Below, in pieces: positions 1 through 2,107 of a stretch of 64,000 nucleotides of DNA. Below the pieces are notes generated by a model, which made no database searches, was not told the DNA's origin, and was given only the letters and a program-made list of their open reading frames with translations. Origin of the DNA: Staphylococcus phage vB_StaM_PB50; sequence record OR770614.1; one strand, 5' to 3'. The translations under genes were made by a program, and so were the position numbers. Numbering within the stretch: position 1 is the stretch's first letter; each line of letters opens with the position of its first letter.

Positions 1-89
1 TTCTCTAAACCCGTTTTCATTGATCTTGATGAAGCGTCTAAACTGTAAGCATTCTTTTTCGAAAGGAGCTGTTGTACAATAATTTCATA

Positions 90-274
90 CACTATTTTTA
101 TTTAGTGTTTAGACTATATATTCATCCTATTAGGAGTTTTAATTTTAGTCGTTGAACTTTATTAAGATTATTTACTTAATATTAGATGCTGATCAGTTTC
201 ATAAACTTTCCCAGCAATTTAAAAAATTTTACATATACATTGCTGTATAAGGAGGCTACAACAGTATTTAACCT
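90..274 (-). mobile_element. Group I intron ribozyme core, copy A (P1 guide sequence, P2, P3-P4-P5, P6, P7, P8, P9). The 3' splice site is unresolved (candidate omega-G at 90 or 69).
   Basis: Minus-strand RNA carries the P element AAAUUGCUGGGAAAG, the Q element CUGAUCAGCAUC, the R element GUUCAACGACUAAA and the S element AUAUAGUCU. It also has a P9 hairpin CACUAaauaaaaaUAGUG and the guide sequence GGUUAAA. It is almost identical in the core to the gyrB intron. Confidence 0.6.
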
Positions 275-295
275 CTTAACATGTAAGTCATTTAT

Positions 296-430
296 CTTTA
301 CTATATTCATTTTATAGATGAGACTATATCTTCTTCGTCATATATTTAGTCGTTGAACAATTTAATTGATGCTGATCAACTTTAAATGTCTTTTCAGCAG
401 TTAATATGATTTTAATTGAGCTCATACATA
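296..430 (-). mobile_element. Truncated group I core-like element, copy B (P3-P4, Q, R, S and P9 present; P8 absent; short 5' region). It sits within the P1 loop of copy A, giving a twintron-like or duplicated core.
   Basis: Minus-strand RNA carries AACUGCUGAAAAG, UGAUCAGCAUC, UUGUUCAACGACUAAAUAUA, GAUAUAGUCUC and a CUAUAaaaugaaUAUAG hairpin. It begins immediately after codon ACU (431-433) of the 561-aa ORF. Confidence 0.45.
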
Positions 431-2107
431 AGTTAACCCAACCGGTACTTTATATCTTGTTCTTAATGGATCTTCTTTATTTCCATCATGTCTATAATAA
501 ACAAATTCATTCATAGGAACTTCTAGTTTGTCTAAAGCTTCTTGTATTTGATTAATATCAGCTTCAGATTTATTAGGTAAAACTTCTATATAGAAATTCT
601 CATCACTATTTATGAAACGTTTAATATATCTCATAAATTCTTCATCATTCATTTCATCATAAAAAGATTTATAATTTCTCATATTACTTTGATCTTTATC
701 TAATGAAGATATAACGTCAAGTATTTTATTTTGAATTTCCTGACGTTTCTTTTTACTATCGCTTACTGCTTCATTTAAGATTGATTCTGATTCTAGGATA
801 GTTTCATTTAAAGTATTTTCATTGAATTCCATAAAGAATCTTTCGATTATTTCTATATCACTAGATATTGCTTTTTGGAAATCAAAGTTAGCAGGAATTT
901 CTTTAACACTAAATTTGAATTCTCCATTATCTTTAACATTCTCATCGAAACCAAATTTATCTGCACTATATCTATTAATATCTTCCATATTACCAAATAT
1001 AATTGGACTATCAATACTAAAGTCTGCTAATACATATCCTTGTCCATTATATGATACAGGGAAAAGTTTTATTCTATTTTTAGATGGTTCTACATATGAA
1101 ATTAATTCTATGGATTTGATTCCTAATTTCTTTTCTAATATTTTAAAATAAAGTAAAGCTAATAAGTTAGGATTTATTCTTCCTTGATCTGGTTTAATAG
1201 AGAAGTTTTCATCTAATATCATTGAAGGAGTTACTGTGTAATAAATTTCTTCAGATTTATCTTCAGTAAATACAGGTTTAGAATTTTTAGTTTTATTATA
1301 TAGATAATTAAAAACATCCAATTCATTTTCTAATTGATATTCATAAATTATATCATTTAATTTATTATCAAATTCATAGTCTCCATAGAATTTATAGATA
1401 TCGGTTTCATTATATTTTAAAACTTCTTTATTTATGAATAAAGGTGAATTGAGTACATTGTTCTCTGTAAATATTTTATTGTATATAATATCTTCTTTAG
1501 AATCTGAGAAAATATCATTTCCCATAGATTCTAAAACTTTTACTAAAGTTCTTAACTTAGCATCATTATAGAAATTATACTTATCTTTATTATAACTTAC
1601 ATATTCCTCAGAATTTAAATACTCGCTGAAATCTTTTCTTTTAGTTGAATCTTTACTTAGAAATCTAACTTTAGTAACTTCCGTAAGCTTATCAATATCA
1701 TTCAAAATAGTTTTAATACTGCCAGTATCGGTAACAACAATAGGATTTCCTCCTTTGTAATCTCCGGCATAATCAATTAAAACATCTTCTTCTCTACTTT
1801 TTTGATTTTGAAGAACTATAAATCTAATTTGTGTATTATCATTAAAATACTTAATTAAACTAATATCAAACCAACAAGAATTTCCTTTTTTATCATGATT
1901 TTGACTTTCATTATAATCTAATAGGAAATCTATTTCTGATTCAGTGACTAATATTTCTGTTTCATTCACTAAATCAATAGGAGATTTAATTACACTGATA
2001 TTATCCGATCCACATTCAGAACAAGATGTGATATCTTCATTATATTCTTGAACTTTGCTACAAGAATTACATCTAACGTATTTATTTTTCAATCCATTCA
2101 CTTCCAA
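422..2107 (-). CDS. Hypothetical protein with an N-terminal CxxC...CxxC zinc ribbon. The annotated TGA stop is probably intron-internal, and the gene likely continues by splicing (see the group I elements at 69-430).
   Basis: 561-aa ORF. The last codons (GGU UUA ACU) can pair with GGUUAAA at 267-273 as a P1 helix with U.G at the splice site. The downstream frame stays open to the window edge. Confidence 0.6.
   Translation of the reverse strand: MEVNGLKNKYVRCNSCSKVQEYNEDITSCSECGSDNISVIKSPIDLVNETEILVTESEIDFLLDYNESQNHDKKGNSCWFDISLIKYFNDNTQIRFIVLQNQKSREEDVLIDYAGDYKGGNPIVVTDTGSIKTILNDIDKLTEVTKVRFLSKDSTKRKDFSEYLNSEEYVSYNKDKYNFYNDAKLRTLVKVLESMGNDIFSDSKEDIIYNKIFTENNVLNSPLFINKEVLKYNETDIYKFYGDYEFDNKLNDIIYEYQLENELDVFNYLYNKTKNSKPVFTEDKSEEIYYTVTPSMILDENFSIKPDQGRINPNLLALLYFKILEKKLGIKSIELISYVEPSKNRIKLFPVSYNGQGYVLADFSIDSPIIFGNMEDINRYSADKFGFDENVKDNGEFKFSVKEIPANFDFQKAISSDIEIIERFFMEFNENTLNETILESESILNEAVSDSKKKRQEIQNKILDVISSLDKDQSNMRNYKSFYDEMNDEEFMRYIKRFINSDENFYIEVLPNKSEADINQIQEALDKLEVPMNEFVYYRHDGNKEDPLRTRYKVPVGLTYV

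Follow-up and report, generated by a model that had tools for sequence, protein, structure and literature searches.

Where does the gene end that begins with the 561-residue open reading frame (ORF) at 422-2107 on the minus strand of Staphylococcus phage vB_StaM_PB50, and what are the two ribozyme-like cores that lie just beyond its stop codon? The stretch of DNA concerned, referred to here as the window, comprises 64,000 nucleotides (nt) of sequence record OR770614.1; coordinates are window positions and refer to the minus strand unless stated. An earlier note had described two consecutive group I cores at this place, B and then A, and had proposed that core B lies inside the loop of core A's P1, so that the two form a single twin-core intron that carries the gene past its annotated stop. 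We consider it very likely that they are, instead, two independent group I introns without ORFs, arranged in tandem between 435 and 77 and separated by an exon of 18 nt, in the most conserved C-terminal stretch of the gene for the beta subunit of the virion RNA polymerase (RNAP).

The 561-residue ORF is, as judged by comparison with its relatives, exon 1 of the virion RNAP beta gene. It is about 97% identical to CPT_Machias_239 of Staphylococcus jumbo phage Machias, which is annotated as 'viral RNA polymerase beta subunit, N-terminal', and its PHROG matches are to an RNAP beta family. The start annotated in Machias corresponds to the TTG at 2092, and there is also an in-frame TTG at 2107. A Pfam search with exon 1 alone gave nothing useful; the predicted spliced C-terminus matched RNA_pol_Rpb2_7 only, and weakly (E 0.037). 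Its alignment with solved RpoB structures spans all of the junctions, covering residues 1161-1313 of E. coli RpoB, with PVGYLHVKRLQQLLSKK standing opposite VGYMYMLKLNHLVDDK. At the nucleotide level (blastn, window 1-2500 as query), Machias is 96.9% identical across the whole query, AH12 94.8%, and LY01, Madawaska, MarsHill, S6 and others 76-79%; in the AR9/PBS1 group only exon sequence aligned. It should be noted that the splitting of this gene is already known. The coding sequence (CDS) is joined from three pieces in the annotation of Machias, three in Madawaska, two in MarsHill and three in AR9, and genes for RNAP subunits, gyrB and other genes have been described as intron-disrupted in these phages, with the number and position of exons differing among phages and the exons predicted from protein alignment (Korn et al., bioRxiv 10.1101/2020.12.14.422802). 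The Machias CDS accordingly bears the note 'exon boundaries predicted based on alignment to YP_009282982'. In the AH12, LY01 and S6 records exon 1 alone is annotated, as a separate 'hypothetical protein'; the 561-residue 'hypothetical protein' of several related genomes would thus represent no more than exon 1 of a gene for an RNA polymerase subunit.

The exons and predicted introns at the end of the window, in the order of transcription, are as follows.

436..2092, minus strand: exon 1, ending AAA GUA CCG GUU GGG U (K V P V G and the first base of a Tyr codon); its end is set by uninterrupted alleles.
289..435, minus strand: predicted intron B, 147 nt, with U436 preceding its 5' splice site and G289 as its final base; junctions set by uninterrupted alleles.
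271..288, minus strand: mini-exon, 18 nt, AC UUA CAU GUU AAG AGG U, which completes the Tyr codon, encodes L H V K R and opens the next Leu codon.
77..270, minus strand: predicted intron A, 194 nt, with U271 preceding its 5' splice site and G77 as its final base; an orthologous intron lies at the same site in LY01.
9..76, minus strand: exon 3, 68 nt, UA CAA CAG CUC CUU ... AUG AAA ACG GGU, encoding (L)QQLLSKKNAYSLDASSRSMKTG.
1..8, minus strand: putative third intron at 'site C', first 8 nt UUAGAGAA, truncated at the window edge.

The map follows from the requirements for group I junctions (the upstream exon ends in U and the intron in G) applied together with alleles in which the gene is uninterrupted; in combination, these allow a single set of junctions to fit the window. 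In MarsHill, which has no intron at sites B or A, the gene reads AAA GTT CCA GTA GGG TAT TTG CAC GTG AAA AGA CTT CAA CAA TTA CTT TCG AAA AAG, that is, KVPVGYLHVKRLQQLLSKK. The peptide of the mini-exon is contiguous with that of exon 3 in both MarsHill and AR9, and VPVGY[LV]x[VL]KRxQQ is contiguous at the equivalent place in five metagenomic homologues that have no interruption there and share 38-80% identity with the query; a large protein search returned seven relatives. With both introns removed, the joined product would read ...KVPVG YLHVKR LQQLLSKKNAYSLDASSRSMKTG, i.e. ...KVPVGYLHVKRLQQLLSKKNAYSLDASSRSMKTG, which reproduces the uninterrupted reading exactly; G289 and G77 are the sole intron ends that restore the uninterrupted coding sequence. 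The same rules give, for Machias, introns of 147, 194 and 180 nt, four exons and a spliced ORF of 680 residues and, for Madawaska, two introns of 146 nt, three exons and a spliced ORF of 684 residues; in each case the ORF ends at the annotated end of the CDS.

Several parts of the earlier proposal can be adjusted against this map. The stop codon, UGA at 424-422, does fall within an intron (intron B), as had been suggested, such that unspliced RNA would yield only the truncated 561-residue product, and the gene does appear to continue beyond it, the downstream exons encoding conserved beta-subunit motifs. The 5' splice site had been placed after position 431; the uninterrupted alleles place it after U436. 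The reading frame reported as open from about 89 to the window edge is indeed open from 89 onward, but the exon itself occupies 76..9 and positions 89-77 belong to the 3' tail of intron A.

As judged from its pattern of variation, the stretch 288..271 is a genuine coding exon under coding constraint. In the 21-nt segment encoding YLHVKRL there are nine variable sites among the window, LY01, Madawaska, MarsHill and S6, and all nine are synonymous. The mini-exon restores GYLHVKRLQQ, identical to the MarsHill allele; its peptide aligns with VGYMYMLKLNHL of bacterial RpoB, and the motif is kept in the metagenomic homologues. Neither the 18-nt nor the 68-nt exon has a start codon of its own, yet both are in frame.

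A third intron probably begins at position 8, on the evidence of eight nucleotides and of the relatives. After ...MKTG (GGU, 11-9) the window reads UUAGAGAA where uninterrupted alleles read CAAUUAACU (CAA UUA ACU, QLT), and Machias and AH12 have an intron of 180 nt at exactly this site. The eight nucleotides are closer to UUAGAGUU, with which the site-C intron of MarsHill begins, than to UUUAAUGA of the small Machias intron, despite the overall identity to Machias of about 97%. A stop or terminator immediately past the window edge had been named in the earlier note as a finding that would count against an extended gene; in Machias, where the corresponding sequence can be read, a third intron and an exon of about 100 residues follow, and neither a stop nor a terminator.

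The assignment of introns B and A to group I is based on their P1 helices, terminal G, order of core helices and covariation, all read from sequence comparison. The Rfam group I model (Intron_gpI, RF00028) matched intron B at 445-307 (26.6 bits, E 9.6e-5) and intron A at 280-90 (42.0 bits, E 2.3e-9) in 600-nt scans, which agrees with the positions and strand previously given for the two cores. Over the whole 64-kb window there was no group I match at the gathering score of 50 bits and none at E<=1, and the matches were recovered solely in short sub-windows. The sequence of P7 and J8/7, ACGACUA...GAUAUAGUCU, which would form the guanosine-binding site, is in B and A alike close to AGACUA...GAUAUAGUCu, the Rfam consensus, and is nearly invariant in the family. 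The ORFs within 77-435 are of just 42-43 residues and overlap core helices, so neither intron appears to encode a homing endonuclease. A third copy of the core lies in gyrB.

12981..13157, minus strand: gyrB intron, 177 nt, Rfam 33.9 bits, with P2 (GUAA loop) and P8 present; it interrupts the Toprim motif between TSDAD and DDGLHIQ.

The near-identity of the three cores, to which the earlier note had drawn attention, is borne out by shared exact motifs. The 14-mer GTTCAACGACTAAA occurs exactly three times in the window, at 157-144, 358-345 and 13064-13051 (chance expectation 0.47 with two mismatches allowed), and ATATAGTCT is found at 119-111, 329-321 and 13023-13015, in intron A, intron B and the gyrB intron, respectively. 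The intron at the same gyrB site in LY01 is 156 nt long and has no P8 (extract L009, ~14962-15094).

Paralogues were gathered from the window, Madawaska, Machias and 250 kb of LY01, and 40 of them were aligned by sequence only. The canonical structure, including the P3/P7 pseudoknot, gives 94.3% standard pairs in this alignment, a proportion that falls to 27-45% if the 3' partners are displaced by one to three columns. The covariation score is 0.354, no displaced version exceeded 0.082, and 500 shuffles yielded no score as high as the one observed. Changes on both sides were seen in 24 of the 40 pairs overall and in five of the six pairs of P3, where pairs 9-99 and 10-98 alternate between A-U, U-A and C-G with no mispaired sequence. 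Across at least 40 paralogous introns, covariation is strong in P3, P5, P6, P8 and P9. The earlier note had held that a lack of P3/P7 covariation in homologous phages would speak against the introns. The strong covariation of P3 in related phages means that this test does not refute them; P7 showed no covariation among the 40 paralogues, five of its six pairs being invariant, which is uninformative either way. A family covariance model built from the 40-member alignment, with the gyrB intron, B and A in its seed, found exactly three copies in the window, scoring 113 bits (gyrB intron), 92.1 bits (B, with P8 deleted) and 60.8 bits (A). It places the 3' ends at ...AUAAAUG before AC for intron B and ...UUAUUG before UA for intron A, and ...AUAAAUG is the ending of most family members. 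A further weak match at 62456-62537 (minus strand, 20.8 bits, E 0.19) is probably noise.

The structural elements of the two introns, with 5' and 3' strands separated by a solidus, are the following.

409-301, minus strand: intron B helices P3 409-404/343-338, P4 399-395/374-370, P6 368-358, P7 351-347/325-321 and P9 317-301, from the family model and Rfam.
248-161, minus strand: intron A elements P2 248-235 (GCAA loop), P4 5' strand 216-211, P5 206-196 and P6 180-161, from the family model and fold.
150-77, minus strand: intron A elements P7 150-146/116-112, P8 135-125 (UCCU/AGGA), P9 107-90 and the 3' tail 89-77, from the family model and fold.

In intron B, the guide GCUCAAU (421-415) pairs with the exon sequence GUUGGGU (442-436) to form a P1 of 7 bp, with U436.G421 at the splice site. 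This helix covaries: the exon sequence GUUGGAU of LY01 and Madawaska is matched there by a guide GUUCAAC, a compensatory change of G-C to A-U. P2 and P8 are both absent, just CGAAGAAGAUA being left between the 3' strand of P3 and the 3' strand of P7. An unconstrained minimum-energy fold recovers P1, P3, P4, P5 and P9, and the Machias copy of the intron is 99.3% identical. In intron A, the guide GCCUC (256-252) pairs with the exon sequence GAGGU (275-271), with U271.G256 at the splice site, and LY01 is arranged alike; here the unconstrained fold contains P1, P2, P4, P5, P6, P7, P8 and P9 (z = -2.24). The elements attributed to the cores in the earlier note, namely a P9-like hairpin but no P8 in copy B, and P5, P6, P8 and P9 in copy A, are all present or absent as it described.

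On this basis, each intron would fold separately, its guide pairing with the last five to seven bases of the exon directly upstream and the U.G wobble (U436.G421 in B, U271.G256 in A) marking the 5' splice site. In the usual group I pathway, a free guanosine would cut the RNA after that U, whereupon the exon end so released would attack after the last G of the intron, G289 in B and G77 in A. Removal of both introns would join exon 1, the mini-exon and exon 3, leaving the third intron at position 8. That splicing of B and A is autocatalytic, and that B can splice unaided in spite of lacking P2 and P8, are both things that we infer.

The composite intron originally envisaged would have a P1 formed by GGGUUAACU (439-431) and GGUUAAA (273-267) and would be spliced from 431 to approximately 90/89, giving ...GLT-YEIIVQQLL.... 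In its favour are six complementary bases with a terminal U.G (436-431 against 273-268), the frame open from 89 on, and the three-piece join of the Machias annotation, which would suit one composite intron plus an intron at site C. However, the last sense codons of the ORF, said to be GGU UUA ACU, read GGG UUA ACU, so that what had been described as a perfect 7-bp helix has only 6 bp and a G/A mismatch; six AU-rich pairs are not noteworthy given how rich the DNA is in A and T (22-26% G+C in the matched stretches), and 273-267 straddles the junction of the mini-exon with intron A, i.e. the 5' splice site of A itself. Moreover, B and A each have a local guide, that of B covarying with its exon, the 3' ends typical of the family put the ends of the introns at 289 and 77, and the predicted product, ...GLTYEIIVQQLL..., loses YLHVKR and adds LTYEIIV, a stretch found in none of the aligned homologues. 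The variation in 288-271 is purely synonymous, and we regard a nested arrangement as very improbable; a coding exon separates the two introns, each with its own P1 and guide. A twintron was rejected on the same stretch, since 288-271, which it would discard, encodes the conserved (Y)LHVKR(L) and is retained in uninterrupted alleles. Alternatively, the mini-exon might be skipped as the main outcome, the 5' site of B being joined to the 3' site of A to give ...PVG-L-QQLL..., six residues shorter. Such a product is in frame (674 residues rather than 680 in Machias) and would fit the three-piece annotation, and exon skipping has reportedly been seen with the tandem group I introns of Staphylococcus phage Twort orf142; the conservation of YLHVKR in uninterrupted homologues, its alignment with a conserved RpoB motif and the exclusively synonymous changes in the mini-exon nevertheless make skipping highly unlikely as the main outcome; a minor skipped product may also form. 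That there is no splicing at all, with the 561-residue ORF a complete product and the cores dead remnants in an intergenic region, might be supposed from the stop codon at the end of the ORF and from the AH12, LY01 and S6 records in which exon 1 stands alone. We give this virtually no credence, given that the downstream exons carry conserved beta-subunit motifs, that the startless 18-nt and 68-nt exons are in frame and under coding constraint, and that the helices of the introns are maintained by covariation.

Two separate introns with a coding exon between them are therefore the reading that we retain, and a number of points weigh against it. Splicing itself is deduced, the locus being known here from DNA alone. 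The scores of 26.6 and 42.0 bits, significant as they are, lie under the Rfam gathering score, and this is attributed to the short, AU-rich, stripped-down architecture of the introns; the P3 of intron A, which consists entirely of A-U pairs, can be drawn in more than one register. In the GenBank record of Machias three pieces are joined where the model requires four exons. Dropping the 18-nt exon from the Machias locus (extract 5410-7973) leaves the frame intact, with 674 instead of 680 residues, and the mini-exon is thus probably absent from the public record. The remaining points concern intron B, in which P8, a canonical helix of the catalytic core, is missing, for which the fold energy is no better than that of shuffled sequence (z = +0.27), and in which a P10 pairing was sought by inspection and none was convincing. 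Intron B may consequently require a protein or another RNA for its splicing. In the corresponding alternative the exon-intron map is unchanged, but B and its P8-less relatives are degenerate and are removed only with the help of a protein of the phage or host or, in trans, of a full-size paralogue. The absence of P2 as well as P8 and the unexceptional fold energy favour this, and the dozens of full-size paralogues per genome could in principle help. Against it, the P8-less copies retain the pairing of the other core helices (see below), and some have no full-size neighbour adjoining, as with the LY01 gyrB intron, the nearest copy to which is 760 nt away and also lacks P8. Each P8-less copy also keeps a guide that matches its own exon. 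None of these observations demonstrates catalytic autonomy. Dependence of this kind seems to us rather unlikely.

P8 is missing in 11 of the 40 aligned members of the family, intron B and the LY01 intron at the gyrB site among them. In these 11 copies, 324 of the 334 pairs (97%) in P3, P4, P5, P6, P7 and P9 are standard, from which it appears that the copies are being maintained and not left to decay. A P2 hairpin closed by a GNRA loop (GCAA, GUAA, GAAA, GUGA or GCGA) occurs in 20 of the 29 copies that contain P8 and in none of the 11 that lack it (one-sided hypergeometric probability approximately 7e-5, calculated by hand). The confinement of these loops to P8-containing copies suggests a tertiary contact of the P2 loop with P8 that was lost together with P8. 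Where both ends could be fixed, the P8-less introns are 146-156 nt long; their sites include gyrB, the RNAP beta gene and others. An exact-pattern scan for P8-less cores found none in IMG/VR or GTDB genomes and matched three metagenome contigs. Family members on metagenome contigs, P8-less copies included, lie at 4665-4806 and 5332-5447 of contig L013, 701-823 of L014, and 1895-2034 and 2181-2315 of L015; the last of these contigs resembles LY01 and the other two are more divergent, which suggests that the distribution of the small variant may extend beyond those Staphylococcus jumbo phages that have been sequenced.

It is tempting to regard intron B and the relatives without P2 and P8 as autonomous ribozymes, in which case they would be the smallest natural self-splicing group I introns, with P8 dispensable, and the family might be spreading to sites that match its guides, e.g. 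by reverse splicing. This is a tentative proposal that we think possible though doubtful. We know of no self-splicing group I intron as small as 147 nt; a search of the literature on the smallest and on P8-less group I introns turned up nothing relevant, and the size record was neither confirmed nor contradicted by it. If an intron of 147 nt without P2 and P8 does self-splice, natural group I ribozymes could be smaller than hitherto supposed. The many paralogues, some having P8 and others not, amount to a natural deletion series that is ready for study.

The sites at which the gene is interrupted in these phages, in nt downstream of site B, are as follows.

Position 0, site B: group I intron in the window, Machias, AH12, LY01 and Madawaska.
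Position +18, site A: group I intron in the window, Machias, AH12 and LY01.
Position +21, S6 site: group II intron in S6.
Position +35, second Madawaska site: group I intron, a second intron of B type, in Madawaska.
Position +86, site C: group I intron in Machias, AH12, MarsHill and AR9, and probably in the window.

Introns at five points within approximately 90 nt of a conserved beta motif make this a striking hotspot for intron invasion. The second Madawaska intron is a near-duplicate of the first, 35 nt downstream and after UUGAGU rather than UUGGGU (approximately 6233-6378 and 6414-6559 of extract L005, with a 35-nt mini-exon between them). Its guide, GCUCAAU, is that of intron B in the window, and it looks like a case of spread to a nearby similar target, in keeping with the suggested movement to guide-matching sites. 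The group II intron of S6, 3 nt downstream of site A (extract L006, ~6250-8170), has the boundaries GUGUG...AU and exceeds the thresholds of both Rfam models concerned (RF00029, 66.4 bits; the D1-D4 model, 44.5 bits); its 436-residue ORF matches DUF4379, a treble-clef zinc finger, and not a reverse transcriptase, and the S6 GenBank record annotates the pieces of the gene as separate hypothetical proteins.

The family is abundant. With intron B as the blastn query, 26 places were matched in the Machias genome, 24 in AH12, 24 in LY01, nine in Madawaska and seven in MarsHill, and 250 kb of LY01 contains at least 36 small copies together with several larger introns. The tandem arrays that many LY01 copies form, with a spacing of 140-300 nt (in extracts L008-L012, e.g. 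41045/40857/40657/40456 of extract L008, 37644-38742 of L010, 27462-26254 of L011 and 32958-33560, in the order 33560-32958, of L012) indicate that mini-exons are probably common in these genomes. An exon of 18 nt is easily overlooked in annotation, and the default Rfam threshold misses every intron of the family found here (42, 34 and 27 bits against 50). Rfam is reported to identify no introns in the related phage UFV_DC4 (PMC10638138), which may be an artefact of the threshold.

Directly upstream of the RNAP gene is a gene for gyrase A (2229-5783, minus strand, 1184 residues), the counterpart of CPT_Machias_238. An intein of approximately 373 residues is annotated in the Machias gene, and the CDSs of MarsHill, Madawaska and S6 are equally long; the neighbourhood thus combines an intein with group I introns. 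Repeated palindromic hairpins, e.g. GGTAATGACCAAATTAATGATCATTACC and CCCAATACCTAAATTAATAGGTATTGGG, are found in the window at 2153-2204 and 9978-10029 and at 35052-35088, 46204-46240 and 59855-59891, and are probably intergenic terminators. The first of them lies between gyrA and the RNAP gene, approximately where a terminator is annotated in Machias.

The closest comparison is with Machias itself (MW349128, CPT_Machias_239), which has the same gene with introns A and B at the same sites as the window. Madawaska (MW349129, CPT_Madawaska_233) also has the same gene but, unlike the window, carries its second intron at a different site and has a mini-exon of 35 nt. The exons of Korn et al. (bioRxiv 10.1101/2020.12.14.422802) were derived from protein alignment; in contrast to the present analysis, neither ribozyme structures nor exact splice rules were given. 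In Bacillus phage AR9 the orthologous gene (YP_009282982, three exons) has a group I intron exactly at site C, after ...MK(S/T)G. It differs in having none at sites B and A, and its introns are larger and of another type, one with an HNH endonuclease gene; the site-C intron of MarsHill, like that AR9 intron, carries an endonuclease gene.

The presence of several group I introns in one phage gene recalls orf142 of Staphylococcus phage Twort, although both the phage lineage and the gene are different; that gene reportedly has three group I introns and shows exon skipping, and the introns are said to be of full size (at least approximately 250 nt) and to possess both P2 and P8. The intron of the Azoarcus pre-tRNA-Ile, at 205 nt, is commonly named as the smallest group I intron capable of self-splicing, and the GNRA loop of its P2 docks into P8. 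The introns described here resemble it in being compact and without peripheral domains, and their GNRA-P2 hairpins occur only in copies that contain P8; as putative ribozymes, intron B (147 nt) and the introns at the same site in LY01 and Madawaska (146 nt), which have neither P2 nor P8, are smaller. Finally, in a twintron an inner intron interrupts the sequence of the outer intron itself, as in the twintrons of Euglena plastids, and the DiSSU1 intron of Didymium is a twin-ribozyme. The likeness lies in the occurrence of two cores within a few hundred nucleotides; at the present locus, a coding exon separates the cores, and each would use the exon that lies directly upstream of it.

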